A stretch of 64,000 nt of DNA from IMG/VR virus record IMGVR_UViG_3300032167_000048. One strand, given 5' to 3'. A model generated the notes under the pieces. The model worked only from the letters and a program-made list of their open reading frames with translations. It was not told the DNA's origin and searched no databases. This document shows positions 8,864 to 64,000 of this stretch, in pieces (the first letter of the stretch is position 1; each line of letters begins with the position of its first letter). A program made the translations under genes and the position numbers. This stretch comes from a virus (Duplodnaviria; Caudoviricetes).

Positions 8864-8999
8864 TTATATATGTTTTAATAGAAAATATTGTGCATGATAC
8901 GTAGATGCATAACGTCAATATTAAAGCATATAAAACTATAATTTTATGAATGAAAAGAGAAACAAATTAATTATAAATTTTGAAAGGAGATTTCAAAAT

Positions 9000-11900
9000 A
9001 TGGGTAAAAAAATTTTTACAGATGAAAGTTTGGCTACGTTTGTAGACGAAACAAAATCATATGTAAATTCTGCTACGAATAAACTTAAAGACGATTTATT
9101 AAATGGAGCTGGAGAAGCATATGATACATTGAAGGAACTTGGTGATTTAATTAGCGAAAATACAGATGCAATTGATGCCCTTGAAATCGTTGCAACTGGC
9201 AAAGCAGATAAAGACCATGTTCATGATATTTATGAGACTAAAGAAAATGCTAAGATTAAATATGATGAGCTTAAAGCTATTCAACCAGATTGGAATCAGA
9301 ATGACGAAACAGCTTCCGATTATATTAAGAATAGAACACATTATGAAGAGGCTGATGTAAAAACTGTCGTTCTTGAAGAAACAATAGTTTATTGGGATGA
9401 CTTAAACTGGGGTTACCATATTGAAAAAGCGTTTACCCTTGAAGCAGATAAATTATATGAAGTAACTCTTAATGGTGAAATTTATGAATGTACATCAAGA
9501 GCAGATGGAGCACTTGGCGTTATTTTAGGTAATGGTTCTATGCCATTTAGGATAATGTGGAAAGCCTACGACCCTCATGTGACTGAAGTAACACATCTTC
9601 CAGAGAATAGTGGCGATTACACTTTTAAAATTTCTCGTATTGATAAAAAAGGCGGATTAAAGCTTATTGATGAAAAATTCATTCCAGATACTATTGCAAG
9701 AGTAGATTCAATTCCTCAGTCTGATTGGAATCAGAATGATGAGACATCTGTTGATTATATTAAGAATAAGCCATTCTGGAGCAAAATGGTTCAAAATACA
9801 ATAGTTTTATGCGATGTACAGAATGTAGATTGTGAAACCGCTAATGATTTTAGCGTTGTATTCTCGGATGCAAATGTTTCTCCTATTGTTGGTGCTACTT
9901 ATAATGTATCATTAAAAACATATCTTGATAATATAGATTGGGGAACACATTCGTGTGTATCATGGTTTCCAGAAAATGAACAAAACGGATATCTTGCGTA
10001 TATTGGTAATGGTAGTTTGTTTGGATATGACGGATATGGAGAAAGCGTTCCATTTCTTATAATTGTTTACTATAATGAAAGCAAAGGTAAGTATTACTGG
10101 AAAATAAGACTTGAAGTCGATGAGTCTATTGTTGCAAGACTTCCAATGAATGTAAAGATTGAAGAAGATTCGTCAATTGAACAAATTAAAAAACTTGACG
10201 AAAAATATATTCCAGATGCTATCGCAAGAATCGATTCAATTCCACAGTCTGATTGGAATCAGAATGATGAAACAGCTGTTGATTATATTAAGAATAGAAC
10301 GCATTATGAATCTACAAGTATTGTAAGAGGAGAAGAACTGTTTTCAGATAATAATATTAGTTTGTTATCTGATGGAGAGTATAACACATTAGATACTTAT
10401 ATAACAAATGATGTTGAACAATATGTGGAAGTTGTATGGGATGATGTTCCATATATGTGCGAAATAAAACAAAATGATGCTAAAAACGTATGCTTCGGTG
10501 ATTCTAATTTAACAGAATATCCATTTTATTATACTGAAGATGGAGCGTTTGATACAAAATTATATGCACGTACTGGAGACCATACAATTATAGTATATAA
10601 CTGTACAGTATCTGAGGTAATTAAGAAAATTGATAAGAAATTCTTACCAGACAGTGTTGGTGAAAATGTAGAGGGTCAGTCTTATGAGAATGTTGTAGTG
10701 GGATACGACCCAGACCCTTCAGTAGGCTTAGTTTATGCTGATAATATTGTTGCTGGAGAAGGTGCTGAAATTTTTAATGATTATTCTAATAATAGGGCTG
10801 TTGGTAAATTCTCTCACGCAGAGGGCGAAAACACACAAGCTAATGGGATGTCATCTCATGCAGAAGGTGGCAACACTATTACTGCTGGCGGATATACACA
10901 TGCAGAAGGCTGGAGTACTAAGGCGACCATGATGGCAGCTCATGCTGAAGGTCAGTTTTCTGTATCAACTGCTCAAGCTTCACATGCGGAAGGTTATAGA
11001 ACACTCGCATGGGGTATAGCTTCTCATGCAGAGGGATATGATGCAACAGCTGGCGGCCACTCTTCTCATGCAGAGGGCAATAATACAAAAGCTAACGGAA
11101 AATACTCCCATGCAGAAGGGGTTGGCACAACAGCTTCGGAACAAGCTTCTCATGCAGAGGGAAGTGAAACAACAGCTTCTGGAGAGGGTTCTCATGCCGA
11201 GGGAATATTAACTACTGCCTCTGGAGATGGTTCTCATGCAGAGGGCTTAGGTTCTATGGCATCAGGAAGCAACTCTCATGCGGAGGGAAGTACTACATAT
11301 GCAACAGGCGCAGCGTCTCATGCTGAAGGGAATAGCACATCTGCTTCAGGAATGTATTCTCATGCAGAAGGGCATGGTGCAAATGCAGTTGGAGCTGAGT
11401 CACACGCAGAGGGAAGCGATACTGTTGCAAATGGAAATGTGTCTCATGCTGAAGGTATGAACACAGAAGCTAACGGAAATATATCTCACGCTGAGGGATT
11501 CTACACTATTGCTTCTGGAGAAAATCAGCATGTTCAGGGAAAATTTAATATACCTGATGTAGACGAAGATGGTAATGCATTAAATAGATATGCTCATATT
11601 GTTGGTAATGGTGGAGATATTGACGAAGAATTAGGAGAATATAAACGTTCTAATGCTCACACTCTCGACTGGGATGGTAACGCTTGGTATCAAGGTGATG
11701 TTTATGTAGGTGGAACTTCTCAGGATGATGGAGTTAAATTAATTAAATCAACAGATATCTTGGAAGAAAAAGTTGGCAGTGATACATTAACATGGGACGG
11801 AGATACAACTGGTAAAGAACCAATGATTAGTAGTACTTTATATCTTATAACAGATAAAGTTCCAACTATTGATGATTTATCAAATGGCTTTGTTGAAACT

Positions 11901-12218
11901 TTAAGCGATGGAAGAACTTATGATACCATTTTATCACAATCAGACGAATGTATTACATTATATTCTGTAATCATAGCAATGAAAGACAATGCTTTAATTC
12001 CAAACAGCGCATCCGTATGTCCTAAAAAGGGTGTTTATTTTGGAAATGCTGGAGTGCACACGGCATCTCTTAAAATTAATGGATTTGCTTGGTCTACTGA
12101 TGTTAAGATTAAGGCTTCATACATTCCAGATGATTTAGAACTTATCACAGTAGATGACATTGATGCTATTTGTGGTGGCTCTATCGAATTTGCAAATATG
12201 AATGAGGGGGCGTTTTAA
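9000..12218 (+). CDS. Large tail-fibre/adhesin protein with YadA-head-like HAEG repeats
   Basis: Start set at 9000 from the gaaaggag RBS; 3 DWNQNDE modules; 17 HAEG repeats. Confidence 0.7.
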   Translation: MGKKIFTDESLATFVDETKSYVNSATNKLKDDLLNGAGEAYDTLKELGDLISENTDAIDALEIVATGKADKDHVHDIYETKENAKIKYDELKAIQPDWNQNDETASDYIKNRTHYEEADVKTVVLEETIVYWDDLNWGYHIEKAFTLEADKLYEVTLNGEIYECTSRADGALGVILGNGSMPFRIMWKAYDPHVTEVTHLPENSGDYTFKISRIDKKGGLKLIDEKFIPDTIARVDSIPQSDWNQNDETSVDYIKNKPFWSKMVQNTIVLCDVQNVDCETANDFSVVFSDANVSPIVGATYNVSLKTYLDNIDWGTHSCVSWFPENEQNGYLAYIGNGSLFGYDGYGESVPFLIIVYYNESKGKYYWKIRLEVDESIVARLPMNVKIEEDSSIEQIKKLDEKYIPDAIARIDSIPQSDWNQNDETAVDYIKNRTHYESTSIVRGEELFSDNNISLLSDGEYNTLDTYITNDVEQYVEVVWDDVPYMCEIKQNDAKNVCFGDSNLTEYPFYYTEDGAFDTKLYARTGDHTIIVYNCTVSEVIKKIDKKFLPDSVGENVEGQSYENVVVGYDPDPSVGLVYADNIVAGEGAEIFNDYSNNRAVGKFSHAEGENTQANGMSSHAEGGNTITAGGYTHAEGWSTKATMMAAHAEGQFSVSTAQASHAEGYRTLAWGIASHAEGYDATAGGHSSHAEGNNTKANGKYSHAEGVGTTASEQASHAEGSETTASGEGSHAEGILTTASGDGSHAEGLGSMASGSNSHAEGSTTYATGAASHAEGNSTSASGMYSHAEGHGANAVGAESHAEGSDTVANGNVSHAEGMNTEANGNISHAEGFYTIASGENQHVQGKFNIPDVDEDGNALNRYAHIVGNGGDIDEELGEYKRSNAHTLDWDGNAWYQGDVYVGGTSQDDGVKLIKSTDILEEKVGSDTLTWDGDTTGKEPMISSTLYLITDKVPTIDDLSNGFVETLSDGRTYDTILSQSDECITLYSVIIAMKDNALIPNSASVCPKKGVYFGNAGVHTASLKINGFAWSTDVKIKASYIPDDLELITVDDIDAICGGSIEFANMNEGAF
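10810..11520 (+). repeat. 17 x 42-bp (14-aa) HAEG coding repeats
   Basis: tctcatgcagaggg-like motif recurring every 42 bp. Confidence 0.85.
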
Positions 12219-12766
12219 TGAGTGATTTAGTAATTATTGAACGTCAGGACGTTGTTTCTATTGCAGACGCTGTTCGTAGTAAAACTGGTGAAACCAAAGA
12301 CCTTACTATTGGTGAAATGATTGATGGTATTAAGTCTTCTAGCGGAGCTTCTGTTAATTTGGATGAAGAAGTTGCAACTCAGAACAATCTTATTGCACAG
12401 ATTCAAACAGCTTTGGAAAACAAGGTTGTAGGTTCTAGTGGAACATCTGTTGACACTTGTACTGTAAATTTTTGGAACGATATAATATATGGTCAAACAC
12501 GATTAAAATTCATAGTTTCAACTCTAAATGGAGGTAAAGTATGCGTGTCTAATACTGGGGAAATTGATGGCTTGAATAGTACTTCTTTAGAAAATGTAAT
12601 TTGTGGAAGTTTAGCTATGGTTATTCCTATAAATAGTACTTTTGGTGCAAGTGAACATACGGTATATATTGGTTCAAATACTGAAACTCCTATCGCAACA
12701 ACATACCACTATTTTACTATACCAAACGAACCAAATACAGAAATCAATATTTCAGTTGGAATGTAA
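12218..12766 (+). CDS. Tail-module protein
   Basis: IADAVRSKTG N-terminal motif typical of tail-associated proteins. Confidence 0.55.
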   Translation: MSDLVIIERQDVVSIADAVRSKTGETKDLTIGEMIDGIKSSSGASVNLDEEVATQNNLIAQIQTALENKVVGSSGTSVDTCTVNFWNDIIYGQTRLKFIVSTLNGGKVCVSNTGEIDGLNSTSLENVICGSLAMVIPINSTFGASEHTVYIGSNTETPIATTYHYFTIPNEPNTEINISVGM

Positions 12767-12782
12767 TAAGGAGGGATAATTT

Positions 12783-13190: not shown

Positions 13191-13296
13191 AACAATAATA
13201 AACTGATAATAAAATAACACTTTTATAGGCTACTGGTTTAATAAATTAGTAGCCCTTTATTGTAAATCCTTATAAATATAAAAGGAGGAATAAAAA

Positions 13297-16783: not shown

Positions 16784-17020
16784 ATGATTTCAATAGAATT
16801 ATTAAATAAATATAATATGGTTAGTTTGGACGAGTACAAAGAAATGTTCGGGGACACTATGGATACAGAAATAACATTCTACACCACCTTCTTAATTCAA
16901 ACAGACCACATACCAAATAAAATAATTGAAGCTCAGATTATGGGAAAAGAAATTGGTGATTATACCGAAATCTTGAATTGCAGAGAATATTGCAGAGAAA
17001 AAATTAATGAATTAAAATAA
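16784..17020 (+). CDS. Small tail-fibre chaperone-like protein
   Basis: LIQTD...R...REKINEL pattern. Confidence 0.5.
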   Translation: MISIELLNKYNMVSLDEYKEMFGDTMDTEITFYTTFLIQTDHIPNKIIEAQIMGKEIGDYTEILNCREYCREKINELK

Positions 17021-17028
17021 TAATTTTA

Positions 17029-20208: not shown

Positions 20209-21831
20209 ATGTCTAGTATATCAAGAACAATTGAAAGAAGTCGAACAAGAAAAACAGCAGTTGCTTATGCAAGATACTCTTCTAACAATCAACGTGAGGA
20301 AAGTATTGATGCTCAATTAAGAGCAATTCGTGAATATTGTGAAAAAGAAAATATTGAATTAATTGAAGAGTTTGTCGATGAGGCACTTACTGGCAAAAAC
20401 GATGACCGTGAAGATTTTCAAAATATGATTACAAAGTTATTAAAGGGTCATATACAAGCAGATTATGTTTTGGTTCATAAGTTTAATCGTTTTGCTCGTA
20501 ACAAATTTGATAGTACTTTGCATAAAAAGAAATTAAGAGACATTGGTGTTAAGGTTATTTCTGTAACACAAAAAATTGATGATACACCAGAGGGTGAGTT
20601 ATTAGAGGGTTTTCTTGAAACAATAGACCAATATTATTCTGCCAACCTTGCAACTGAAGTTAGAAAAGGTCTTAGAGAGAATGCATTAAAAGGTAAACAT
20701 GCTGGAGGTCAAGTTTTATTTGGATACTCTTTGGATGATGATGGGTATTATATCCCAAATGAAAATGCAAAAATTGTGAAACGTATTTTTGAAGAGTTTG
20801 CTCTTGGAATACCTAAAACAGAAATTTGTGAAAGATTGAACGCTGAGGGATATAGAAATCAAAGAGGTAAAAAATTCAATACTCGCACACTCTACGACCT
20901 TTTAAGAAATGAGAAATATATTGGCAACTATGTTTATACAATAGACAAAAAAGAAACTATCAGATTAGATGGTATTATCAAAGGTCATCCAATAAACAAA
21001 GAACTATGGAATACCGTTCAAAGATTATGCGATGAATCTTCTGAAACGCATGGCAGACAAAGAAGTCAAAAAAGATATTATTATCTAACTGGTAAAACTT
21101 TCTGCTCTTGTTGTGGAGAACATATCTGTGGTAATGGCTCTAAACGTTCTGGTGGTAAAAATGGTAAATTAAATTATTACTACAAATGCGTTGGAAAAAC
21201 AAATCATAAAAATGGATGCAAAAATCCAAGCCTGAATAAAGATTGGTTTGAACCAAAGGTGTTAAAAGCTGTTCTTGATACGGTTACAAACAAAGAGCAA
21301 GTTAAAGAGATTGCTCAAATGGCTTATAAAGAAATACTTGAAATGAGAGATGAGCCAGTTGTAAGTACTGCTCAACTGAAAAAAGAATTGGCTCAAATAT
21401 TTAAGAAGCAAGAAAGGCTAACAGACTTATATATGGATGGTGATATGAGCAAAGAAATGTTAGATAATAAAAACGGTGAATTAACAAGACGCAGATTCCA
21501 AATTGAAGAAGAATTAGAAAAAAGAAAAAATATTTTAGACGCAGACGATATCCAAGTTGAAGATATTGAAAATTACATTATTCAATTTATTGAAGATGTA
21601 AAAGAAGATTGCGAATCTATAGACGATGAGTTTATGAGAATCATGTTGAATGTATTTGTTAAGAGAGTTGATGTTAGTATTGAGGAGGTGGTAGTCCATA
21701 TCCATACGCCATTTGGTCGTATGGATAGAGGTGATAGCGTTTGTTTTGGTGGGGTAATCCAAAGACTAACACCCATTAATCTAGTACAAATCTTTCCTCG
21801 TAAAACCAATGTTCATGGTAAAAATATTTAA
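20209..21831 (+). CDS. Large serine recombinase (integrase)
   Basis: YARYSS catalytic motif, NRFAR, recombinase domain, CxxCG...YYKC...C zinc ribbon, coiled coil. Confidence 0.93.
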   Translation: MSSISRTIERSRTRKTAVAYARYSSNNQREESIDAQLRAIREYCEKENIELIEEFVDEALTGKNDDREDFQNMITKLLKGHIQADYVLVHKFNRFARNKFDSTLHKKKLRDIGVKVISVTQKIDDTPEGELLEGFLETIDQYYSANLATEVRKGLRENALKGKHAGGQVLFGYSLDDDGYYIPNENAKIVKRIFEEFALGIPKTEICERLNAEGYRNQRGKKFNTRTLYDLLRNEKYIGNYVYTIDKKETIRLDGIIKGHPINKELWNTVQRLCDESSETHGRQRSQKRYYYLTGKTFCSCCGEHICGNGSKRSGGKNGKLNYYYKCVGKTNHKNGCKNPSLNKDWFEPKVLKAVLDTVTNKEQVKEIAQMAYKEILEMRDEPVVSTAQLKKELAQIFKKQERLTDLYMDGDMSKEMLDNKNGELTRRRFQIEEELEKRKNILDADDIQVEDIENYIIQFIEDVKEDCESIDDEFMRIMLNVFVKRVDVSIEEVVVHIHTPFGRMDRGDSVCFGGVIQRLTPINLVQIFPRKTNVHGKNI

Positions 21832-22466: not shown

Positions 22467-22490
22467 ATCACACCTCATAAAATTTAAGTT

Positions 22491-22718
22491 TTATAACTCA
22501 TCAAATCTTGTTTGCAACCTTTTAATTTCATTGTCACACCAGTTAATAATTGTATTTTTTAAATCTCCATTTTTATCTGCCCAAGACAAATATATATAAT
22601 CTCTAGTGTTAGAGTTTTCTTTTATTATAGGAGCACTAAACATACACCTTCTTAACTCTCTAATGTATTCAATTGTTCTTGAAATTTCTTGCCCTTCTTT
22701 AAGTGTTTGTTCTGTCAT
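22491..22718 (-). CDS. Hypothetical protein
   Basis: ORF bounded by two TAAAA-N6-TTTTA motifs. Confidence 0.6.
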   Translation of the reverse strand: MTEQTLKEGQEISRTIEYIRELRRCMFSAPIIKENSNTRDYIYLSWADKNGDLKNTIINWCDNEIKRLQTRFDEL

Positions 22719-31423: not shown

Positions 31424-31468
31424 ATTTCATTCACCACCTAATAAAATTGGGATTTTAAGTGCTATTTT

Positions 31469-32533: not shown

Positions 32534-33042
32534 ACGCCATTTTCCTTTTTCCAGATATTCTGATTGCCACTACCACGAAATTTTAATGTAACATCTCTTA
32601 ATTTATCTATATATCTGCCGTCAACAAAAACATCTATATTTTCTTCTAATATAAACTTTCTATAATCGTCTGCTTGAGTCCAATTAAGAAATGTGTCAAA
32701 ATCTTGATTCATTATTTCATCATATGTATATCCACTATATAACCATATCTTTTTATCTGGGAACAGATGTTTAATTCTTTTTGTTAACAAATATACTTTT
32801 CTAACATTTAAATTAGCTAATGGCTCTCCGCCAAGAATACTAATTCTCTTAATATATGGTTTACTAATTAACTCTAAAAATTTTTCTTCAATTTCTTCTG
32901 TCCATTCTTTGCCGCCATTAAAATCCCAAGCCTCTTCATTAAAACAGCCTTTACAATGAAATTTACATCCTTGTGTGAAGAGGGAACATCCTATTCCCTC
33001 TCCATTACATACTTCAAATGGCAAAATCTGTGCGTATCTCAC
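32515..33042 (-). CDS. nrdG: Anaerobic RNR activating enzyme (radical SAM)
   Basis: NGEG, CKFHCKGC, GGEP, VDG.Y, FRGS.NQ. Confidence 0.95.
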   Translation of the reverse strand: MRYAQILPFEVCNGEGIGCSLFTQGCKFHCKGCFNEEAWDFNGGKEWTEEIEEKFLELISKPYIKRISILGGEPLANLNVRKVYLLTKRIKHLFPDKKIWLYSGYTYDEIMNQDFDTFLNWTQADDYRKFILEENIDVFVDGRYIDKLRDVTLKFRGSGNQNIWKKENGVWVKTT

Positions 33043-35258
33043 TATAGAGTTCCTCCGTCATGTTTTACACGTAAGCCAACTTCTTCTTGTTTTCCCTCAT
33101 TGAATGCACTAGTATAATCACCAGTTAAATATCCAGTAACACGTCTAAGTCTCTGAATTTCATCTCCACCACACATAGGACACATATGAGAGATTTCATC
33201 TGTATAACCACACTGCATGCAAGTATCATTAGGTACGTTTACTGCAAAGTATGGAATATCTTTGTCCATAGCATAGTTCACGATATCTTCTAATGCTTCT
33301 AAGTTGTTTTTAACAGTTGAATCCAGTTCAATATATGTAATACATCCAGCACTACTGTAGCCAGTTAACTGAGACTCAATATCAATTTTTTCAAATGGAT
33401 TCATCTTTTCCCAAACTGGAACATGCATTGAGTTAGTAAAGAATTTCTTATCTGAAACTTTAGGAATTACACCGTATTTTTCTTTGAATTTACTCATAGC
33501 TGTAAAGCAAAGATTTTCTGCTGGTGTATAATAAACACCAAAGTTTAATTTGTACTCTTCTTTAAATTCTGCACATCTATCTTTAAATAACTGTTCAATG
33601 CGTTTAGCAAGCTCCATACCTTTTTCTGTTGTATGATTGCATCCAATAAGAATTTCAAGCGTTTCTGCAAGCCCAAGCTGTCCGATTACAATTGTTCCAT
33701 GTTTAAGAGCTGAACGAATTCCCTCTTCTGGAATATATCCCTCCATTACTCCATTTTCATACATGAATTTAGCCGAGTCTGGAGACTGTGAACAAATCCA
33801 TTCAAAACGTTCAAGAAGCATGTCTTTTGCCTCGTGAATTTTCTTATCTAATAATTCCATAAATACTTCAACAATATTGTCGTCATATTCACTCATAAAA
33901 GATTCTTTTGCCTGCATTGCTAAAGTAGGCATAATAATTGTTACTGGACAAATATTGCCACGTCCATCTTTCTGCTGTTTTAATCCATTAATATCCCATC
34001 CATTTGCAGTACGACATCCCATTGTGCTGAAATACGTCTGAGGGTCATTAATATCATATCCAGCATTTCCAGACCAATCTACATTTGCATAGTTAGGATA
34101 CAATCTCTGTGCAGTAGATTTTAATGCTAACTGGAACAAATCATAGTTAGGGTCTTCTGGTTTTCTATTAACACCTTTCATACACTGGAAGATTCCACAA
34201 GGGAAAATGGATGTTTTATGAAGACTTCCAATACCATCGATAGATACCTCAAGTAATGCTTTTGTCACCATACGACCCTCTGGTTCTGTACAAGTACCAT
34301 AGTTAATAGATGTAAATGGTAACTGATTACCAGAGCGAGACTGTAATGTGTTTAAATTGTGGTACATGGCTTCAACAGACTGACGTACTTCTTTTTCTAC
34401 CATATCCATTGCATATTTATATGCTTCTTTGTTCTGCTCTGAATTTGCTTCAAGGTCATTAAATGACAATTCTTTTGGAACAATCTTTGCGTACTCTTCA
34501 TCTTTTAAAATGTATTTAACTCCATTTTTAAAATGCTTTGCAAAGCTCTTTCTAACGTATGGAATCATAGTCCAATCTAAGTGAGTTGCAGAAACACCAC
34601 CGAACTGCTGCAAGCTCTGTAACTGGAAAATTACAGCAACTAACTGAAATGCTGTGCTTACAGATTGAGCTGGTCTAACATCTGTCTGTCTTGTATTAAA
34701 TCCATTTGCAAGCAATTTATCAAATGGGATACTCATACAATTGTGCATTCCAACAGCGTATGAGTTAAGGTCGTGAATATAAACTTCATTATTTAAATGA
34801 TTGTTTTTGGCCATCTCAGACATACAATAATCTAATGCATACTGTTTCATTACTGCATCATTTGCTTCTCCCATACGACCACCAAACGACTTCTCATCAA
34901 CATTAGCGTTCTGATTCTGTACGTTTTTAGCCATAAGTTTTTCTGATACAGATTTGATTAATTTACTATTTCTTTCACGAGCCTTAGTTCTTTCATTGCG
35001 ATATAAAATATACTGTTTTGCAACATCTTTACGATTGCTTGCCATTAATTTTGTTTCTACAATGTCTTGAATTTCTTCAACAGACATTTTCTTTTTGCCA
35101 GTTTCTGTAATCTGATTTGTAATTCTATCAATAATTACTTTTGATTCATCTGTGATATCACCATCGATATCTTTAAAAGCCTTTCCAATTGCTATACAAA
35201 TCTTATTGGGGTTATAGACATCTTCTCTTCCATCGCGTTTAACAACAATGTTAACCAT
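33042..35258 (-). CDS. nrdD: Class III ribonucleoside-triphosphate reductase with ATP cone
   Basis: VVKRDGR ATP cone, MGCR, TPAENL, CxxC..CxxC, RRVTGYL glycyl-radical loop. Confidence 0.97.
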   Translation of the reverse strand: MVNIVVKRDGREDVYNPNKICIAIGKAFKDIDGDITDESKVIIDRITNQITETGKKKMSVEEIQDIVETKLMASNRKDVAKQYILYRNERTKARERNSKLIKSVSEKLMAKNVQNQNANVDEKSFGGRMGEANDAVMKQYALDYCMSEMAKNNHLNNEVYIHDLNSYAVGMHNCMSIPFDKLLANGFNTRQTDVRPAQSVSTAFQLVAVIFQLQSLQQFGGVSATHLDWTMIPYVRKSFAKHFKNGVKYILKDEEYAKIVPKELSFNDLEANSEQNKEAYKYAMDMVEKEVRQSVEAMYHNLNTLQSRSGNQLPFTSINYGTCTEPEGRMVTKALLEVSIDGIGSLHKTSIFPCGIFQCMKGVNRKPEDPNYDLFQLALKSTAQRLYPNYANVDWSGNAGYDINDPQTYFSTMGCRTANGWDINGLKQQKDGRGNICPVTIIMPTLAMQAKESFMSEYDDNIVEVFMELLDKKIHEAKDMLLERFEWICSQSPDSAKFMYENGVMEGYIPEEGIRSALKHGTIVIGQLGLAETLEILIGCNHTTEKGMELAKRIEQLFKDRCAEFKEEYKLNFGVYYTPAENLCFTAMSKFKEKYGVIPKVSDKKFFTNSMHVPVWEKMNPFEKIDIESQLTGYSSAGCITYIELDSTVKNNLEALEDIVNYAMDKDIPYFAVNVPNDTCMQCGYTDEISHMCPMCGGDEIQRLRRVTGYLTGDYTSAFNEGKQEEVGLRVKHDGGTL

Positions 35259-43710: not shown

Positions 43711-43740
43711 TATATAACCACCTTTAAAACTTTCATTTTA

Positions 43741-43923: not shown

Positions 43924-43956
43924 TCTTATCACCTCTTAAAAACGAAATTTTATTGC

Positions 43957-44223
43957 CTATAATCTCCACATGTATTCTCTAATAATATCTTTTATTTCTT
44001 CATCGCTATATTCTCTGCCTAATAATTCTTCACTATCTAACTGATTAGTAAAATAATCATATATTAAAGCCATGAGGTCATTATGTTCTGCAATTTTTCT
44101 ATATTTTAATTCTGGTGCTCCAACATATTCCAAACAATCATTAATAAAGAAATTATTTGATATTTTATATAACTTTTGGAATATAGAACATCCACCAATT
44201 TTATCACAACTATAACAAAGCAT
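43957..44223 (-). CDS. Hypothetical protein
   Basis: Start MLCYSC after gaggt RBS. Confidence 0.6.
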   Translation of the reverse strand: MLCYSCDKIGGCSIFQKLYKISNNFFINDCLEYVGAPELKYRKIAEHNDLMALIYDYFTNQLDSEELLGREYSDEEIKDIIREYMWRL

Positions 44224-44248
44224 TTTGTTACCTCTTAAAACTCTTATT

Positions 44249-44437
44249 TTATTCATCGTCATCTACTAATCTTCTAGTAGACGATATTACTTGTTCTAAT
44301 ACTTGCTTTAATTCAATTACTTGTGTTCCACATTCTCTACATCTATGCCAATAGAATCTAACACCGTCAGTTCCTTTGGCAACTTGAAATCTATTTTTAA
44401 CCTTTTTACAATGTGGACAATAAAACTTCCAATTCAT
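44249..44437 (-). CDS. Small zinc-ribbon protein
   Basis: CPHC...CRECG. Confidence 0.6.
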   Translation of the reverse strand: MNWKFYCPHCKKVKNRFQVAKGTDGVRFYWHRCRECGTQVIELKQVLEQVISSTRRLVDDDE

Positions 44438-44467
44438 ATATTATCACCTCTTAAAACTCAGATTTTA

Positions 44468-44746
44468 TTATCTAATTTCAATTTCACCATATTCTAAATC
44501 ATTGTTTATAAAAATTTTATGTCCAGTATACTCGGCTATTCTACCATTTGGCTCGTGTTCGTCTTTGTATTTTGATGTTATACGCAAAAATAAGTTTAAT
44601 GGAGATATGGTAAAATCAACGCTCTTTGCTGTATTTTCACTCATAAAAATATATGGATTAGATTTATTTGTAATATTTACATATTCATCAATCTTTCTAT
44701 TTAATTTATCTAAATCCATTTTTATAATAGAAAAAGTATCTCTCAT
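44468..44746 (-). CDS. Hypothetical protein
   Basis: Start MRDTFS after gaggtga RBS. Confidence 0.6.
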   Translation of the reverse strand: MRDTFSIIKMDLDKLNRKIDEYVNITNKSNPYIFMSENTAKSVDFTISPLNLFLRITSKYKDEHEPNGRIAEYTGHKIFINNDLEYGEIEIR

Positions 44747-44774
44747 ATTATCACCTCTTAAAACAACAATTTTA

Positions 44775-45293: not shown

Positions 45294-45325
45294 AACTTAC
45301 CTCATAAAACCTTTATTTTATCACC

Positions 45326-45520: not shown

Positions 45521-45545
45521 TTTAATACCTCTTAAAATCTTTGTT

Positions 45546-46052
45546 TTATAACTTTGTTTCATTATTAGCAGATGTAACATCCCAATACTTAGTAGTTGAT
45601 AAAGAATCTGATAATTCACTAATAGTATTACTAATCGTGTTGAAATTATTTGCACAATCTTGAATTGCTTTATCATAATGTTTTAATTTTTCTACATTCC
45701 ATGATACATGTCTATTAGATGACGTATATCTATTATTGTCTGCAATATCTGTTATACTCATTGCTTTAATCTTACTATGTAATCCAATGTTATATAACAT
45801 CTGTTGTAACACAGATTCTGTATCGTCTACCAAAATACCATTGTCAAGACTTCTATTTCCTCTAATTTTATCTGAAAACACATCGCCAACACATAATGGC
45901 TCTGGAATATTTAAATGTAATTCTTTTGCCATATGTAATAAAACATTTTTTTGCGCTAAGCTACTACACAAAATTGGTGCATCATTAAATTCACTTGCAT
46001 AAAGCAATCTTGTTGTTTTGCCTTGACCTCTACCTAAGTTAATAATCTTCAT
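45546..46052 (-). CDS. Small P-loop-containing protein
   Basis: GRGQGKTT and ILVDD. Confidence 0.6.
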   Translation of the reverse strand: MKIINLGRGQGKTTRLLYASEFNDAPILCSSLAQKNVLLHMAKELHLNIPEPLCVGDVFSDKIRGNRSLDNGILVDDTESVLQQMLYNIGLHSKIKAMSITDIADNNRYTSSNRHVSWNVEKLKHYDKAIQDCANNFNTISNTISELSDSLSTTKYWDVTSANNETKL

Positions 46053-46545: not shown

Positions 46546-46562
46546 CACTTAAAATCCTCGTT

Positions 46563-46823
46563 TTATAACTCTCTAACCTTAAACAAATTATATGTCATAG
46601 TTTCTTCATATGCTTTTGCCATTTTGTCAAATGCTTCTTTATCTCTAAAAATAAATTTGTTCTCAAAATATATTACGTCAGTTCCTTCTGGCATAGTCGA
46701 TTCATATTCGTAACCATACATTTTTTTATAAAACCAATTTATAATTTTATATTTGCTATATTTCTTTTGCTTCTTTATTTGTTGAGCAATAATACATGGT
46801 ATACCAAATAATAATTCATTCAT
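46563..46823 (-). CDS. Hypothetical protein
   Basis: ORF bounded by the motif. Confidence 0.6.
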   Translation of the reverse strand: MNELLFGIPCIIAQQIKKQKKYSKYKIINWFYKKMYGYEYESTMPEGTDVIYFENKFIFRDKEAFDKMAKAYEETMTYNLFKVREL

Positions 46824-46858
46824 TTTTTACCTCTTAAAACTAATCTTTTATAACCTTA

Positions 46859-47213: not shown

Positions 47214-47239
47214 ATGCTTTACCTCTTAAAATGTTAGTT

Positions 47240-47362
47240 TTAACATGTGCAACGCCATTGCCAATGTCCGTCCCAGAACACTTTCTCATAGTACTTGCAC
47301 CCTTTACAACCAATTGTCTTTCTTTTTGATTTACTTACTTTTCTTTTACAAAAGAAAGCCAT
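47240..47362 (-). CDS. 40-aa basic Cys-rich peptide
   Basis: MAFFCKRK...GCKGCKYY...WQWRCTC; lies exactly between two motifs. Confidence 0.5.
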   Translation of the reverse strand: MAFFCKRKVSKSKRKTIGCKGCKYYEKVFWDGHWQWRCTC

Positions 47363-47388
47363 ATCTTTTACCCCATAAAATTAAACTT

Positions 47389-47718
47389 TTATAATACTCT
47401 TATCCATGTGTTGTTGTGAAACACATAATCTTTATCCAAACATTCTTCTATACAAATGTCTCCGTTTTTAACCTTATCTGAATCAACACAAGAAATATTT
47501 TCTGTGTGGATAATACCATCTTTATCTCTGTACCATCCACCACAATAACCATCATATTTCTTTTTTAATTCTCGATATTCTTTAACAAAAAGCTCTTTGA
47601 ACCATAATTTATAAAATTCAAATGTATTTTTTGCATTAAGAAACTGCATATAATAATTTTCTCTATCTGTTTCATATGCAATCATTTCTTCTTTTGAATT
47701 AAATTCTATAAATTTCAT
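47389..47718 (-). CDS. Hypothetical protein
   Basis: ORF bounded by the motif. Confidence 0.6.
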   Translation of the reverse strand: MKFIEFNSKEEMIAYETDRENYYMQFLNAKNTFEFYKLWFKELFVKEYRELKKKYDGYCGGWYRDKDGIIHTENISCVDSDKVKNGDICIEECLDKDYVFHNNTWIRVL

Positions 47719-48568: not shown

Positions 48569-49750
48569 TTAAATATTATCAAGCCAGCTTAAATCAACAT
48601 CTTTATTATCTATAACGTTGCTACTTGTAGGAACACTATTGCCTAAAAGCCCACCAAACATATCATTGTTGTTTTGAGATGCTTCAAGTCTATTACAATA
48701 TTCATCATATGGTTTATGAAGACTTCTACTATAACCACATAAGTTTGCGAAGTAATAACTCTGTTCTTTTACAGATTCATCAGTATCCCAGAAACATCTA
48801 TCACTATGAGCCTCTCTATAATCGGCTTCTCTAAGTTCAATATCTTTAATAGTTGTTGATACATGAGTAGTCCATTTCTCAATCAGCTTCTCTACTAAAT
48901 CAACATAAACATAACAATCTGAAATCACGTATTTTGCTCTTACTTCTTCTGGAAGACAAGTAATATCATTTGTATCAAGTAGTTCTTTTAGATATTTATC
49001 TGGTTCATATCCAAAATGTTTCAACCAAGTTTTTGCATTACTCTGTAGACTTTCTCCAATTTTACAACGTTCTGATTCTCTTGTTTTAATAGCACCATTT
49101 TTCTGCTCATACTGAATAGTTACATATTTTAAGAAGTTCCAACAGATTTTAATCTTATCCATTGGTATACCCTGCTGATGCAATCCAATTGCATATAATA
49201 CCAACTGACCACATTCATTCTCTGCTTTTGCACCCTTATAAATACTAGATGTTTTAAAGTCCACGATATTAATACAATCATCTTCGTCTCTAAAAGCACA
49301 GTCGATATATCCTTGAAATAAGTTGCCATCAATCATGATTTTTACAAACTGTTCAATAATTGGTTTCTGCTTTAATACCGTATGATTATTAAAGAAGTGA
49401 ACTAAATTTTCATAATACTTATCTTTAATTTTCGTATTTTTTTCTTCATCTGTTCTATCAAATTTTAAGTCAGCGATATTAACAGCAACTGTCCAACCAT
49501 CTTCAAACTGACCAATCATGTCGCTATATTCAATTTGATTTGTATAAAACTTTTCTAAGATATCATGTGCCAAACCACCAGTTGTCGTATAAATAGAGTT
49601 TGCTCTATCTTCTTTTGCTTTTTTAATATATTTTAAATAATATTCATACGGACTTGTATGAAAACAATTAATTTTAGACCATGACCAAATACGGTCAACG
49701 CCTTCTTTTTTCATAAGAGCCTGTAACTGCTCACTCGTTAATCTAGCCAT
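48569..49750 (-). CDS. PD-(D/E)XK (RecB/Cas4-like) exonuclease
   Basis: SWSKI, G...H, GYID, IVDFKT, QLVLY. Confidence 0.85.
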   Translation of the reverse strand: MARLTSEQLQALMKKEGVDRIWSWSKINCFHTSPYEYYLKYIKKAKEDRANSIYTTTGGLAHDILEKFYTNQIEYSDMIGQFEDGWTVAVNIADLKFDRTDEEKNTKIKDKYYENLVHFFNNHTVLKQKPIIEQFVKIMIDGNLFQGYIDCAFRDEDDCINIVDFKTSSIYKGAKAENECGQLVLYAIGLHQQGIPMDKIKICWNFLKYVTIQYEQKNGAIKTRESERCKIGESLQSNAKTWLKHFGYEPDKYLKELLDTNDITCLPEEVRAKYVISDCYVYVDLVEKLIEKWTTHVSTTIKDIELREADYREAHSDRCFWDTDESVKEQSYYFANLCGYSRSLHKPYDEYCNRLEASQNNNDMFGGLLGNSVPTSSNVIDNKDVDLSWLDNI

Positions 49751-49778: not shown

Positions 49779-49807
49779 ATTATAACATTATTAGTTATAT
49801 TTGTCAA
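49779..49807 (-). promoter_or_regulatory. Consensus sigmaA promoter
   Basis: TTGACA-17-TATAAT with TG extension. Confidence 0.85.
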
Positions 49808-50514: not shown

Positions 50515-50562
50515 ACACAATATATTGTGTCGTTATTTTTAATAATACACTATATATAGTAT
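50515..50562. promoter_or_regulatory. Tandem NrdR-box pair
   Basis: acacaatatattgtgt (50515) and acactatatatagtat (50547), 32 bp apart. Confidence 0.7.
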
Positions 50563-50759
50563 TAAATATCTTTATATTCACACATATCTGTAAAATCATC
50601 TGGTGAATTTTTAAATCCAACTCTTGAATAATCCAAACCACCATCTACATATACAGTTCCACATTTGCATTCTACAAAATCGTGTCTATGTTTGGACTCA
50701 ATTACTTCTACACAATGATTACACTTAATTGCATTTCTAATTAATTTCTTTTCATTCAT
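50562..50759 (-). CDS. Small zinc-binding phage protein
   Basis: CNHC...ESKHRHDF..CKCG...VDGG.DY.R. Confidence 0.75.
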   Translation of the reverse strand: MNEKKLIRNAIKCNHCVEVIESKHRHDFVECKCGTVYVDGGLDYSRVGFKNSPDDFTDMCEYKDI

Positions 50760-50762: not shown

Positions 50763-51836
50763 TTAAAACCTCTTTTTTAAACTCTTCTCATATTTTTCAT
50801 GTTGCGTTGTATCATAAACAATTCTGTTATCAAACAGATATTGGAAATCTTTATCACGCGCATCTGCTGGACTATCTTTAGCAGATAAGATATCCCATTT
50901 ATCTTTAATGTAGCTTACTTTTCTGCCTCTCCAAAATTTTTCGCACATATGCCATACTTCTTCGTCTCTAATGTCTTTATCCATAGCTATCACTATTTCT
51001 ACATTTAAGCCCCAAAGAATATTTATCTGTTCGTCACTCAACGTGTGACCAGATAATGCCACGCCAGTTTCATCAAACAAACTATCTCTTTTTAAAACGC
51101 TTTTTTCTGCTTCATATACAACCACATAACCAGCCTTTTTAATTGATTCGCTGTTTTCATATAATCCGTATAAATTTAATAGCTTTGGATATGTTGGTGT
51201 AATAAAATATTTTTTAATCCCAAATTCATTATAGTTTTCTACCGTAGTTCTCTGATTAAAACCAAGCAGCTCACCAGTAAGCCAATATTTCATAGGAATA
51301 ATTACACGTTTATATTTATAACTATAAGCCAGAGCAAATTTCTTTCTGGTCTTTTCTGTTATACCCTCTCTTAACCAGTCAATATGCAACATTGGAATAT
51401 AATCATTCATTAGTTTATCATCTAAAATATGAATATCATCAACATCTATTGTTCTTTTTTTACCACAAGCACGCTTAAATACTTCAAGAGGGTCGAATTT
51501 TTTCTTGGGCTTTTCCGCTCTTTTATATTCATATTTAATCCCAAGAATATTATGTATATATTTAATTGCCTCAATAATAGACATATTTTTATTATATTGG
51601 ACTAGAGTTACAATGTCAGAACCTTCGCCAAACTCTTTTTCTCTAGTCCAATTTGTTACGCTCAAATACTCGTTATTTCTTACATTAATAGCGCCTTTGT
51701 TATCGCCATTAAAATTACCACATGAATAAAATTCTTTTTTAGGATGATAAACTATACTGTGACAACCAATTTCCTCTAAGATATATTCTATTTTTTTATT
51801 TTTCCAAATATACTCTTTTAATTCACCAATTGTCAT
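50763..51836 (-). CDS. DNA primase (TOPRIM)
   Basis: RVIIP, LYGL, YEAEKS, IAMDKD, K.SP.D; adjacent to the helicase. Confidence 0.8.
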   Translation of the reverse strand: MTIGELKEYIWKNKKIEYILEEIGCHSIVYHPKKEFYSCGNFNGDNKGAINVRNNEYLSVTNWTREKEFGEGSDIVTLVQYNKNMSIIEAIKYIHNILGIKYEYKRAEKPKKKFDPLEVFKRACGKKRTIDVDDIHILDDKLMNDYIPMLHIDWLREGITEKTRKKFALAYSYKYKRVIIPMKYWLTGELLGFNQRTTVENYNEFGIKKYFITPTYPKLLNLYGLYENSESIKKAGYVVVYEAEKSVLKRDSLFDETGVALSGHTLSDEQINILWGLNVEIVIAMDKDIRDEEVWHMCEKFWRGRKVSYIKDKWDILSAKDSPADARDKDFQYLFDNRIVYDTTQHEKYEKSLKKRF

Positions 51837-58439: not shown

Positions 58440-59591
58440 TTAATCACCACACATTTCAATTAATTTAATCGCCTTATCTATTTCATTTATAACATTATCT
58501 ATATCATCATATGTAATATCATCTGGAAGACTAATTCTTACTGTTCTTATTGCTTCGCTATCTGTTAGTCCAATTTCTTTTAATACATGACTTGGATTTA
58601 TTGATTTGGAATTACATGCACTTCCAACAGAACAGTATATTTCAGATGTTTCCAATGTATATACAAGAGCTTCTCCAGTTATCTTCTGTGGGAATGTAAC
58701 ATTAATATTATTAGGAAGTCTATAATATGGATGACCATTCAATTTACATCCAAATCTTTTTTCAAGCATGTTGATAAAATAAAATCTTTTATCTATTAAT
58801 GTTTCAATAGCTTCCATATTAACGTTGCAATAATCTATAGCCTTGCTAAGTCCAATAATACCATATGTATTCTCTGTGCCACCACGAAGTCCACTTTCTT
58901 GAGCTCCATAAATAAGCGGATTAATGCTAATACCATTTTTCTTATATAAGAAGCCAACACCTCTTAATACTGGAGAAATTTTATGACCACTGCAACTCAT
59001 CATATCAATACCCATTTTTTCTACATCAATAGAAATATGTCCAAATGCTTGAGTTGCATCAACGTGTAGTACTCCACCATGTTTATGTACAATATCTGAA
59101 ATTATTGGTATATGCTGAACAGTCCCAATCTCATTATTAGCCATACACACGCTAACCAACACTGGCTCATTATAACATTCTGCTAATAACTTTTCTAATT
59201 TATTTAAATCTACCAATCCATATTCATCCACATCGCAATATCTTACAACAGCACCAAGGCTTTCGTTTCTAACTGCACTTATAATAGACTTGTGTTCAAT
59301 TCTTGTAGTAATTACATATGGATTATCATATAAATTATCCCACATTTTATCTGAAAATCCTCTAATTGCCCAATTATTACTTTCAGAAGCTCCACTTGTA
59401 AAATAAATTTCATTTGGTTTTGCTCTAATAAAATTAGCAATGTTATCTCTGCATTTATCAATTTCTTTTTTAACATCAAAAGCATATAGACTGGATGGGT
59501 TCATCCAATGTTCTTTCATGGCATATACCATCTCATTGATAATTATATCGTCAACTTCATTTTTAGCTGTTGCTGCTACATCTAAATACAT
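58440..59591 (-). CDS. iscS: Cysteine desulfurase (IscS/NifS type)
   Basis: YLD.AAT, NPSS, FTSGASE, NNEIGT, DATQ, SGHK, GTEN, GSAC. Confidence 0.92.
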   Translation of the reverse strand: MYLDVAATAKNEVDDIIINEMVYAMKEHWMNPSSLYAFDVKKEIDKCRDNIANFIRAKPNEIYFTSGASESNNWAIRGFSDKMWDNLYDNPYVITTRIEHKSIISAVRNESLGAVVRYCDVDEYGLVDLNKLEKLLAECYNEPVLVSVCMANNEIGTVQHIPIISDIVHKHGGVLHVDATQAFGHISIDVEKMGIDMMSCSGHKISPVLRGVGFLYKKNGISINPLIYGAQESGLRGGTENTYGIIGLSKAIDYCNVNMEAIETLIDKRFYFINMLEKRFGCKLNGHPYYRLPNNINVTFPQKITGEALVYTLETSEIYCSVGSACNSKSINPSHVLKEIGLTDSEAIRTVRISLPDDITYDDIDNVINEIDKAIKLIEMCGD

Positions 59592-60853: not shown

Positions 60854-61807
60854 TTAAAAGCTGTCTAAATGTCCTTTTACTAACTCTCTAAAGTTACTAA
60901 CTTCTATATTACTGTTACATCTCATTAATTCTTTTGATATAATTAAATGCGCCATTTTATTTCTATTATTTTGAGAAAATGCTTCATTCAAAGAGATGTT
61001 GTTTTTATTTAACTCAATTTTAATTCTGTTCATTATACCACTAGCATATAATTGTAATGGCAATAAAGAGTATTCTAAATATTCTTTTGATATTTTACGA
61101 AGCTTTGAATAGAATGTAAATTTATAGCTTTCATCTGATGCTGTAGACCTATTTTCTACTTTGAACACACTATCTGGATAAACTCCACGCATTTCTACAT
61201 TGCATACAGAAAAACGATTTGGACGTTGCCATGTATTTATATCTGCAAGCTTCTTTAAATCTCCTGCCAATCTCTCTGGTATTTTAATTTTATAACTATG
61301 ACCATTATCTTCTCTTAATGTTATAGTCCCATTATCTTCTATATCTGATTTTCTCATATTTTTGATTACGCTTAAATCATCATTATAAACACCATAATAT
61401 AAACAACTGAATAATGATGTATAATATAAAGAATTATACTCTTCATACATTTCTATATCATGTATTGTTCTTTTATATTGCTCATATGATATAAATTTCT
61501 TTTTTGCACTTGGCTTACATTTCTTCCATAAAAGATTTTTGTCAATACTTTGAACAATTTGATATGCATTATCATTATTAACTACACCTTTTTCTTGTAA
61601 ATATTTAAAGTAAGATGATAAAATATAAACTATAGTAATGATTTCTTTACTACTATTTGGGTGCATATTTAATATCAAATTTTCCATTTGTAATGAATTA
61701 TAATTCTCTATGTTGTTTTCATTGATTCTTTTGAATACATATTTAATTACTTTTTGAGTATTGTTTGATTCCATAGAATCAATAAACTCCTGCATATGCT
61801 TATTCAT
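60854..61807 (-). CDS. Degenerate tyrosine-recombinase-fold protein (SPbeta MrpR/YopR-like repressor candidate)
   Basis: SAM-like N-terminus, KKFIS, CLYYGV...KNMRKSDI, LYASG; lacks the R and HxxR catalytic motifs. Confidence 0.55.
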   Translation of the reverse strand: MNKHMQEFIDSMESNNTQKVIKYVFKRINENNIENYNSLQMENLILNMHPNSSKEIITIVYILSSYFKYLQEKGVVNNDNAYQIVQSIDKNLLWKKCKPSAKKKFISYEQYKRTIHDIEMYEEYNSLYYTSLFSCLYYGVYNDDLSVIKNMRKSDIEDNGTITLREDNGHSYKIKIPERLAGDLKKLADINTWQRPNRFSVCNVEMRGVYPDSVFKVENRSTASDESYKFTFYSKLRKISKEYLEYSLLPLQLYASGIMNRIKIELNKNNISLNEAFSQNNRNKMAHLIISKELMRCNSNIEVSNFRELVKGHLDSF

Positions 61808-62971: not shown

Positions 62972-63000
62972 AATTCACTCCCAATAAAATTAAGTTTTTA

Positions 63001-63448: not shown

Positions 63449-63460
63449 ATATATTTCCCC

Positions 63461-63703
63461 TTATTTTAGTATATCTCCTATGGTTTTATGACTATCATTA
63501 GAATAATACGCTTTAAACAAATTTTCATTCGTATGCCAATGACAGTATTTTTCTTTTTTTATAAGTTTATTAATAATAGGAATTTCTAACAAACAATTAT
63601 GCCATGCTAGACTTAATCTATTTGTAAGACAACACACAAGCTTATCATTAAAATGTCTATTTATACAATGTTTACATTCTTCAAAATAACAATCTAATTT
63701 CAT
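63461..63703 (-). CDS. Hypothetical protein
   Basis: ORF track. Confidence 0.5.
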   Translation of the reverse strand: MKLDCYFEECKHCINRHFNDKLVCCLTNRLSLAWHNCLLEIPIINKLIKKEKYCHWHTNENLFKAYYSNDSHKTIGDILK

Positions 63704-63704
63704 A

Positions 63705-63902
63705 TTACTCATCACTATAATCTTCTACTTTTACTCCAAAACACCATTTCCACATTAGTTTCTGAAACCAATTAAAATGTTGGTCTAACATTAAATTTAA
63801 TTGTGAAACCTTTCCACCAGCAATAAACTTGCTACCATTTTTAATCTTATATTTACCTACAGCAAGATTACAATTTTCATTTTCATATTCTTCTAAATAC
63901 AT
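63705..63902 (-). CDS. Hypothetical protein
   Basis: Start MYLEEY after the motif and ggggt RBS. Confidence 0.55.
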   Translation of the reverse strand: MYLEEYENENCNLAVGKYKIKNGSKFIAGGKVSQLNLMLDQHFNWFQKLMWKWCFGVKVEDYSDE

Positions 63903-64000
63903 GTTGTTACCCCATAAAATATAATTTTTATTATACACGTCTCCAAGAAATTTCTGCATTACCATAATAATTATAGAGCCATCTATATTTACCATCTTTT

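Follow-up and report, generated by a model that had tools for sequence, protein, structure and literature searches.

The stretch of DNA analyzed here, referred to as the window, comprises 64,000 bp of an IMG/VR phage record (IMGVR_UViG_3300032167_000048), and the element in question is a 16-bp interrupted palindrome, TAAAA-N6-TTTTA, that is repeated at its gene junctions. The window corresponds to bases 16349-80348 of the 153,181-bp genome (window position + 16348 = genome position), which has a G+C content of 31% and is rated 100% complete. The structural genes are located on the plus strand, and between genome positions 38 and 118 kb most genes are early and replication genes on the minus strand, with small open reading frames (ORFs) in long arrays. 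The window encodes DnaE, RecD2, LigA, an anaerobic NrdD, several nucleases and a 317-amino-acid (aa) protein predicted to belong to the MrpR/YopR/SroF family. A large serine recombinase with Resolvase, Recombinase and Zn-ribbon domains (20209-21831, plus strand) is found at the border of the late and early regions. Outside the window (genome 120046-122922, plus strand), a homolog of the YonO-type single-subunit RNA polymerase shares 48% identity with SPbeta YonO. Based on the YonO homolog, the serine recombinase, the replication and nucleotide metabolism genes (dnaE, recD2, ligA, nrdD) and the MrpR-family repressor, it was concluded that the phage is a temperate, SPbeta-like phage of the gut type with an anaerobic low-G+C host. 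The anaerobic host was indicated by the auxiliary metabolic genes, namely NrdD with an ATP cone (33042-35264, minus strand) and a class-V aminotransferase resembling cysteine desulfurases (58440-59591, minus strand).

Related phages were found by a protein-guided and pattern search of IMG/VR. Among them, G006 is a 43-kb fragment with 40 copies of the palindrome, and G008 has 40 copies in 60 kb. The copies present in the window are given below in window coordinates, with the six-base centers on the gene strand; relatives that carry the identical center are named.

1206-1221: intragenic copy within a 106-aa plus-strand ORF; consistent with chance, which would give about 1 per window
8931-8946, plus strand: late-region copy, intergenic, abutting the ATG of a 1090-aa ORF, without fusion to a ribosome-binding site (RBS)
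13210-13225, plus strand: late-region copy directly past a stop codon and 5' of a terminator-like hairpin
17013-17028, plus strand: late-region copy; its TAA ends ORF 16784-17020, and a terminator-like hairpin comes next; identical center in G008
22478-22493, minus strand: junction site, center CTTAAA
22730-22745, minus strand: junction site, center CTAAGA; the counterpart in G008 reads CTGAGA, in a 41-bp block of 90% identity
23908-23923: intragenic copy within a 70-aa minus-strand ORF; probably a chance occurrence
31442-31457, minus strand: junction site, center TCCCAA, 18 nt 5' of a 90-aa gene
43725-43740, minus strand: junction site, center TGAAAG; TAA stop 3 nt before it, RBS AAGGTGG after it
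43937-43952, minus strand: junction site, center TTTCGT, followed by the RBS AGAGGT
44236-44251, minus strand: junction site, center TAAGAG; the upstream stop is the TAA of the left arm
44452-44467, minus strand: junction site, center TCTGAG
44759-44774, minus strand: junction site, center TTGTTG
45305-45320, minus strand: junction site, center TAAAGG; identical at the matching place in G006 and G008
45533-45548, minus strand: junction site, center CAAAGA; identical in G006, G008 and G009, flanking genes unrelated
46550-46565, minus strand: junction site, center CGAGGA
46835-46850, minus strand: junction site, center GATTAG; identical in G006
47227-47242, minus strand: junction site, center CTAACA; identical in G006 and G008, flanking genes unrelated
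47376-47391, minus strand: junction site, center GTTTAA; identical in G006, G008 and L001
47728-47743, minus strand: junction site, center GCTGAA; identical in G006 and L001
50488-50503, minus strand: junction site, center TGGTGA; identical in G006, G008, L001 and L005, genes differing on both sides
50764-50779, minus strand: atypical copy; a 357-aa ORF runs through it and ends at a TAA formed by the right arm and the next A, and the spacer AAGAGG is the RBS of the next gene
62985-63000, minus strand: junction site, center ACTTAA, in the conserved series ATATAC-ATTATA-ACTTAA
63915-63930, minus strand: junction site, center ATTATA; identical in G006 and G008

In total, 24 exact copies were counted in the window, when 1.26 were expected from dinucleotide shuffles (maximum 5). 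An exact copy was confirmed at every one of the 21 coordinates reported by the first-pass annotation, and three further copies were found at 1206, 23908 and 50764. The placement of the motif at gene boundaries, which had been described for all copies, held for 21 of the 24: the copies at 1206 and 23908 were intragenic, and the ORF upstream of 50764 continues across the site. The spacing was strict, as had been supposed. Spacers from N0 to N14 other than N6 gave 0-3 copies each in the window, and the whole genome contained 57 N6 copies versus 2-11 for the other spacers in the range N2-N11; only N6 was enriched in either. Copies with one mismatch occurred at the background frequency, and only 2 of them lay at junctions, compared to the 57 perfect copies of the genome. 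The arms were also linked as one unit: the minus strand contained 37 strings of TTTTA followed by an RBS-like (A/T)(G/A)NGG, and TAAAA was found exactly 6 bases upstream in 31 of them, in agreement with the earlier description of an RBS directly after the motif. The element is two-fold symmetric with arm centers 11 bp apart. Its invariant 5-bp arms and strict 6-bp spacer have the geometry of a tyrosine-recombinase core site, in which two inverted arms surround an overlap of 6-8 bp. The outer arms were not conserved in this lineage, as judged from a logo of 46 sites.

The same logo gave the gene-strand consensus (stop)TAAAA-N6-TTTTA-AG(A/T)GG with a start codon 5-8 nt further on, and nothing was conserved upstream. 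The junctions were further examined at 117 sites of three genomes. The TAA of the left arm served as the stop codon of the upstream gene at 71 of these sites and a stop was placed 3 nt earlier at 13 more, which bears out the proposal that the motif often supplies the upstream stop; the start codon was mostly located 10-15 nt past the motif. The orientation of the motif was always that of the gene. Promoter-like and terminator-like signals are scarce in the long operons that contain the sites. A PD-(D/E)XK nuclease gene (48569-49750) of the window is preceded by a perfect TTGACA-N17-TATAAT promoter with a TG extension (49779-49807, minus strand), and at the position of this sigma-A promoter the relative L001 has a TAAAA-N6-TTTTA junction. 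Hence, the motif is a mark of junctions within operons and not of transcript starts.

Many of the ORFs between the sites are ORFans of 50-120 aa, frequently with CxxC pairs (44468-44746, 43957-44223 and 50562-50759 on the minus strand, among others), and 7 of the 10 cassette ORFs tested either had no PHROG match or matched families of unknown function only. Three plus-strand copies of the palindrome outside the window (genome 109944, 110471 and 113883) have a context unlike that of the junction copies, with AAAAATTnAATTTTTTTGGATTnnAAAAAA on the 5' side and AGAGAATAAAA on the 3' side.

The strongest evidence on the function of the motif came from its centers. Both G006 and G008 are collinear with this genome, and their core proteins share 66-70% aa identity with it; the four-fold degenerate sites are 43-45% identical, that is, saturated. 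Nevertheless, 18 identical centers were shared between this genome and G006, 16 between this genome and G008, and 27 between G006 and G008, when about 2 were expected from column-shuffled centers (maximum 9 in 1000 trials). Nearly all of the shared centers were collinear, with longest common subsequences of 17, 15 and 27, respectively, versus 6-8 with shuffled order. A neutral 6-mer at 44% silent-site identity would be identical in all six positions less than 1% of the time. The six-base centers are thus not free, because 16-27 of them are shared in order despite saturated silent sites. The first-pass annotation had described the spacer as variable in sequence; it does differ between the sites of one genome, but each site retains its own spacer from one related phage to the next. 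The center ATAGAG, for example, was recovered in 14 contigs that derive from many samples, and it was embedded in a conserved series of neighbors (AGCGTA, TACGAA, ACAAAC, ATAAAA, then ATAGAG, then ATGAAG, ATATAC, ATTATA, ACTTAA).

The conservation was confined to the element. Over 62 pairs of sites with the same center, the mean identity was 100% across the 16 bp and 0.5-0.9 over the RBS, returning to background from about position +8; on the left side it was 0.50 at position -1 and at background (0.23-0.45) from position -2 outwards. Uninterrupted identity at sites of the same label had a median of 19 bp, which is short for unaided homologous recombination, given the minimal pairing lengths of that process. 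Further, the centers of one genome were over-dispersed. Pairs that differed by no more than one base numbered 5, 2 and 1 in the three genomes, when 15.5, 10.2 and 10.1 were expected (P = 0.001, 0.0014 and 0.0002). It is proposed from these comparisons that the six-base center is a conserved, position-specific label.

The genes between the labels behaved differently from the labels themselves. In this genome, G006 and G008, the ORFs on either side of sites with the same center were almost never homologous, and the lengths of the intervals differed widely. At the center ATAGAG, the downstream gene belonged to 12 unrelated families among 16 instances. Fast divergence of orthologs was ruled out as the cause, since the interval lengths differed widely, protein similarity was absent and some homologs were found at other labels. 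Assembly chimeras are an unlikely cause as well, for the same labels recurred in contigs from many different samples. The prediction that breakpoints between relatives would be related to the motif was borne out: when G006 was compared with G008, 34% of the homology-block ends lay within 30 nt of a site, versus 6% expected, and the identity fell to background at the left edge of the motif and just past the RBS.

Traces of recent transfer were also observed. G006 and G009, which are otherwise almost entirely dissimilar in nucleotide sequence in the region concerned, share a 266-bp cassette of 96% identity that starts in the right arm and RBS of the upstream motif and ends two bases past the downstream motif. 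Another cassette, shared by G006 and G007 at 91% identity, has its start precisely where the motif begins on the left. The only pair of sites with the same center in this genome (GAAACA, genome 90284 and 89954) forms a direct repeat of 19-20 bp around a single 98-aa ORF (89954-90299, minus strand), and the right arm of its downstream copy is mutated to TCTTA. This arrangement resembles the trace of an inserted cassette that has since become locked in place. A label duplicated around a single ORF was found in other phages too.

The palindrome is not restricted to the closest relatives. The more distant G003, G007, G009 and G010 carry 7-12 N6 copies each, far above other spacer lengths, and the label series ATGTAA, GGATAA, TGACGA, GAGTGA is shared by some distant phages with this genome. 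No junction motif was seen in the 21-kb loci of G002-G004, although N6 was still the dominant spacer, at low density, in G003. SPbeta itself contains 34 copies of the N6 form, compared to 0-3 for the other spacers from N3 to N9. SPbeta and this lineage have no labels in common beyond chance (1 versus 1.9 expected), and the SPbeta element is not fused to an RBS. The SPbeta centers are likewise over-dispersed (1 close pair versus 5.6 expected, P = 0.02). The flanks of the SPbeta copies show partial two-fold symmetry to position 6 on each side, which suggests an 11-6-11 layout as in Xer core sites. The arms are thus common to all SPbeta-like phages examined here, and the labels are lineage-specific. 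A megablast search of the array against GenBank phages gave no match, and a search of the literature returned analogues only, with no description of this element.

Taken together, it is very probable that the evolutionary role of the motif is that of a labeled crossover joint for cassette exchange. We proposed the following mechanism. The motif would be the core of a junction site that frames promoterless cassettes of 1-3 ORFs in the early operons of SPbeta-like phages, and it would act as the crossover point when cassettes are exchanged between related phages. The invariant inverted arms would be the common element, most likely bound by a protein assembly of two-fold symmetry, and the 6-bp center would be the position label, most likely the strand-exchange (overlap) region of a reaction of the tyrosine-recombinase type. 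Such a reaction would require identical centers, so that only joints of the same label would recombine, the order would be kept and the cargo between the labels would be replaceable. With a stop codon in the left arm and an RBS abutting the right arm, a crossover inside the site would leave both genes intact and translatable. Accessory genes, probably including anti-defense genes, might in this way be swapped position by position between co-infecting phages or prophages without disturbance of the order. The mechanistic statement as a whole, with a junction site, protein-recognized arms and a center that serves as the matching label, is favored by us with modest confidence. That a protein occupies the arms, that recombination is site-specific rather than guided by short homology, and which enzyme performs it are points we infer.

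The search for a binder or an enzyme gave several candidates. The 317-aa protein (60854-61807, minus strand) had been suggested as a recombinase for the motif. Its AlphaFold model (pLDDT 77) matched the SroF-DNA complex best in Foldseek (9rd5, 1.4e-10), followed by MrpR (8a0a) and YopR (8bj6), all ahead of XerA and Cre. Its own match to PF22822 was below the cut-off (E = 0.005), and close homologs carry PF22823 and PF22822. The model and the domains of the homologs thus place the product among the predicted repressors of the MrpR/YopR/SroF family, which have a recombinase fold, and the suggested role as a recombinase was not sustained. More than 1000 metagenome homologs of this protein were found, many of 70-75% identity on contigs of 145-159 kb, which indicates that the phage group is abundant. 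A tblastn search with the 317-aa protein gave no match, nor did PDB sequence searches with this protein and with a 344-aa recombinase described below, nor searches of this genome with SPbeta MrpR and YopP.

The MrpR-like repressor is also unlikely to bind the motif. SroF binds an asymmetric box of 24-26 bp as a monomer (bioRxiv 10.1101/2025.11.27.690993), and chromatin affinity purification sequencing (ChAP-seq) of SPbeta MrpR gave 10 peaks, all at SPBRE promoters (PMC10516654), when SPbeta has 34 motif sites. The SPBRE derived in this work, ATACA-N7-TGTAT inside TTGACA-type promoters, has a different sequence. Additionally, G007 and G009 have sites without a detectable homolog of the repressor. 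Outside the window (genome 105-116 kb), a longer repeat, CCAAAAAAATnnAATTTTTAAAAACTTTA, was observed in about 50 copies of the same orientation; it holds an AAAAA-N6-TTTTT core with a geometry equal to that of the junction palindrome. The length (29 bp) and asymmetry of the repeat would suit a monomeric operator of the SroF type and suggest that it is a better candidate operator for the 317-aa protein than the junction palindrome.

Beyond the window, the genome has genes for two tyrosine recombinases that appear to be intact (92.7 kb and 140.5 kb). One of them, of 344 aa, is a homolog of SPbeta YomM, and a copy of the motif lies directly downstream of the gene in both phages. The other, of 260 aa, has XerH and XerA as its nearest solved relatives, and the box I Arg, the HxxR and the Tyr are visible. 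The serine recombinase at 20209-21831 is probably the integrase, similar to SprA, which would leave the two tyrosine recombinases without an obvious job. One canonical tyrosine recombinase each was found in G007, G009 and G010, and a tyrosine recombinase was present in every motif-bearing genome examined for it (G000, SPbeta, G003, G007, G008, G009 and G010). In G003 the gene of the 260-aa Xer-like recombinase adjoins the MrpR-like gene (7575-9575); in this phage the MrpR-like gene (genome 77.2-78.2 kb) and the Xer-like gene (92.7-93.5 kb) are about 14.5 kb apart, with a cassette array (79.3-91 kb) between them.

Several observations weigh against the exchange mechanism proposed above. Some breakpoints were intragenic, and one cassette of G006 and G008 sits between different labels in the two phages, so some exchange ignores the label. 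In that cassette, the right arm, the RBS, the ORF, its stop and the following left arm are homologous, and the centers are not; the centers therefore belong to the backbone and the arms to both. Palindromic centers, which were used as a test of directionality, were not significantly depleted. The conserved part of each arm amounts to only 5 bp in this lineage, a short stretch by the standard of known tyrosine-recombinase arms. The recombinase content does not track the density of sites, as G003 has homologs of all three proteins of recombinase fold and only 7 copies. None of the enzymes is tied to the sites; the YomM-like 344-aa protein, the Xer-like 260-aa protein and the Xer of the host are possible candidates. 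All relatives are metagenome contigs, and the argument for selection on the labels is indirect.

The serious rival is a regulatory palindrome, an operator or roadblock for a dimeric phage protein in the manner of stoperators, with exchange arising secondarily when identical junctions recombine through short homology. Equal centers would then merely extend the identity from about 11 to about 19-24 bp. Two-fold symmetry with arm centers 11 bp apart would suit a dimer on one face of the DNA, the long operons around the sites show few promoter-like or terminator-like signals, and one gene here has a canonical TTGACA-N17-TATAAT promoter in the position of the motif of a relative. The homology of shared cassettes that includes arms and not centers also fits, and proteins for annealing and recombination are available in the phage family, SPbeta YorG having a Sak4-like annotation. 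However, a protein that reads the arms only would leave unexplained both the conservation of all six center positions at silent saturation and the mutual unlikeness of the centers within a genome. The median identity of 19 bp is marginal for homologous recombination, and the known master repressor family, with its monomeric binding to a 24-26-bp operator and 10 SPbeta peaks against 34 sites, is an unlikely binder. This explanation was considered unlikely on balance, but it was weighed as the leading alternative. A quite different scheme, in which an endonuclease of interrupted palindromes (such as BstXI or SfiI) cuts within N6, the NAD-dependent ligase of the phage rejoins matching overhangs and the fragments of co-infecting genomes reassemble in order, would account for the restriction-like sharpness of the arms (57 exact versus 2 near-miss junction copies), the strict N6 and the unique, mutually unlike centers of conserved order; a LigA-type ligase and several nucleases are indeed encoded in the window. 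On the other hand, no candidate endonuclease was identified, cutting of its own genome at about 50 places would be risky for the phage, and self-ligating palindromic centers are not significantly avoided. We know of no precedent for such a scheme and regard it as highly improbable.

Signals acting on RNA or on transcription explain less. A role in the polycistronic mRNA, as a hairpin, an A/U-rich element by the Shine-Dalgarno sequence or a processing site, would agree with the orientation along the gene, the gapless fusion to the RBS and the included upstream stop, and the start-associated sequences and their extended form (SAS and ESAS) of mycobacteriophages are likewise RBS-linked repeats retained before unrelated genes. 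The 5-bp A-U stem is, however, unstable (+0.7 to +1.8 kcal/mol) and appeared in the minimum-energy fold in 20 of 46 contexts; a hairpin was rejected for this reason and because no compensatory arm variants were found at junctions. UAAAA and UUUUA would not be equivalent to an RNA-binding dimer, the SPbeta palindrome is not fused to an RBS, the late-region copies adjoin terminators without any RBS, and an RNA signal gives no reason for position-specific centers. Such a role appeared about as improbable as the endonuclease scheme. The least credible of all was a phage-specific promoter that makes each small gene its own transcription unit by means of a phage sigma factor or a YonO-type RNA polymerase. 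It would be in line with the many small early genes that each have an element, with the one case where the motif of a relative replaces the sigma-A promoter of this phage, and with the encoded YonO homolog. The logo of 46 sites showed no conserved -35 or -10 hexamers upstream, on which ground a sigma-A promoter was rejected; a transcript that began within the motif would lack a leader ahead of the RBS; and the two-fold symmetry and conserved centers would be unexplained. SPbeta YonO transcribes late genes, and the sites lie in early arrays.

A labeled crossover joint was further compared with known systems. The conserved order, the unlike centers and the turnover of cargo suggest a resemblance to heterospecific lox/FRT cassette exchange, in which the arms are equal, spacers must match, different spacers are incompatible and the swap is ordered and oriented. 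That system is engineered and has 13-bp arms and an 8-bp spacer. In the phages studied here, a given cassette occasionally sits between other labels. To our knowledge, the principle of address by overlap has so far been known only from such engineered variants, and we know of no natural analogue that combines invariant arms with ordered, position-specific conserved centers. Integron cassettes (attC/IntI) are similar in that promoterless single-ORF units form arrays, with an inverted-repeat recombination site between the units and a promoter upstream from which they are transcribed. The attC sites are imperfect palindromes of 57-141 nt that recombine as folded single strands without a requirement for matching centers; the site studied here has 16 bp and conserved, position-specific centers. 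Neither an IntI/attI/Pc platform nor an adjacent PF00589 gene was found by the arrays at 43.7-47.9 kb and 62.9-64 kb of the window. The attC architecture (R''-L''...L'-R', RYYYAAC/GTTRRRY) was not found either, the site being of 16 bp with TAAAA/TTTTA arms and no further conservation in the left flank. The integron-like mechanism put forward by the first-pass annotation was therefore not supported, in the lack of a neighboring platform and of long imperfect attC-type hairpins. What stood of the same proposal was the exchange at the motif of units of 1-2 genes with a 6-bp-spacer geometry, given the breakpoints at the motif and the 91-96% identical cassettes in otherwise unrelated contexts.

Natural systems share single features with the element. 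The pdif sites of the dif modules of Acinetobacter plasmids, which belong to Xer/dif recombination (PMC6449649), have inverted arms around a 6-bp center and many copies in accessory regions, where they flank small adaptive modules, mobile among replicons, without a dedicated integrase platform; the 11-6-11 layout suggested by the SPbeta copies adds to the likeness. In contrast to pdif, the arms here are unrelated to dif and invariant over only 5 bp each, and the sites are co-oriented in operons, fused to a stop codon and an RBS, and provided with an own ordered, conserved center per position. The promoter early stem-loops (PeSLs) of T4-type phages (PMC2839356; PMC4122927) are also short intergenic elements of hyperplastic regions that flank ORFans and mark the boundaries of insertions, deletions and replacements. 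Unlike the 16-bp site with its putative site-specific label, a PeSL combines a promoter and a terminator over tens of bases, and PeSLs recombine through their mutual homology. The sigma-70-like early promoter and terminator stem-loop of a PeSL were not found at the motif, which lacks -35/-10 hexamers and has an unstable hairpin, in an array with few signals. The SAS and ESAS of Cluster K mycobacteriophages (PMC3203893) and the Cluster A stoperators occur by the dozen as co-oriented junction repeats of non-structural regions before unrelated genes, overlapping stop or RBS, and ESAS include, in addition, inverted repeats with a variable spacer. However, SAS are asymmetric and thought to be translational, stoperators are asymmetric repressor sites, and neither position-specific conserved spacers nor borders of swapped genes have been reported for them. 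SPBRE, the operator of MrpR/YopR/SroF (PMC10516654; bioRxiv 10.1101/2025.11.27.690993), belongs to the same phage family, is repeated, has short inverted arms and is read by a protein of recombinase fold. It differs in its location inside about 10 sigma-A promoters, in the 24-26 bp read by a monomer and in sequence, and the 34 motif sites of SPbeta are not among the 10 MrpR peaks.

It was tentatively proposed, with somewhat less than even confidence, that SPbeta-like phages, from those of Bacillus to those of gut Firmicutes, have a dedicated natural system of site-specific cassette exchange with heterospecific sites, in which one recombinase (YomM-type, Xer-like or the Xer of the host) would read the arms and the 6-bp overlap would be the address. 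Phage genomes are mosaic, and an old "linker" idea holds that short conserved sequences between modules guide their exchange, with few clean examples. The joints described here are explicit, countable and individually labeled, and they outlast the genes between them. SPbeta, a genetically tractable model phage, also carries the sites, which makes the mechanism directly testable. For gut phage metagenomes, the motif is a simple annotation marker of cassette boundaries and rapidly exchanged genes. If an enzyme reads the arms and the center sets the choice of partner, this would be a natural system of ordered cassette exchange; its dozens of orthogonal sites might become a tool for multiplex genome engineering, and it would explain the fast turnover of accessory and counter-defense genes in large temperate phages.

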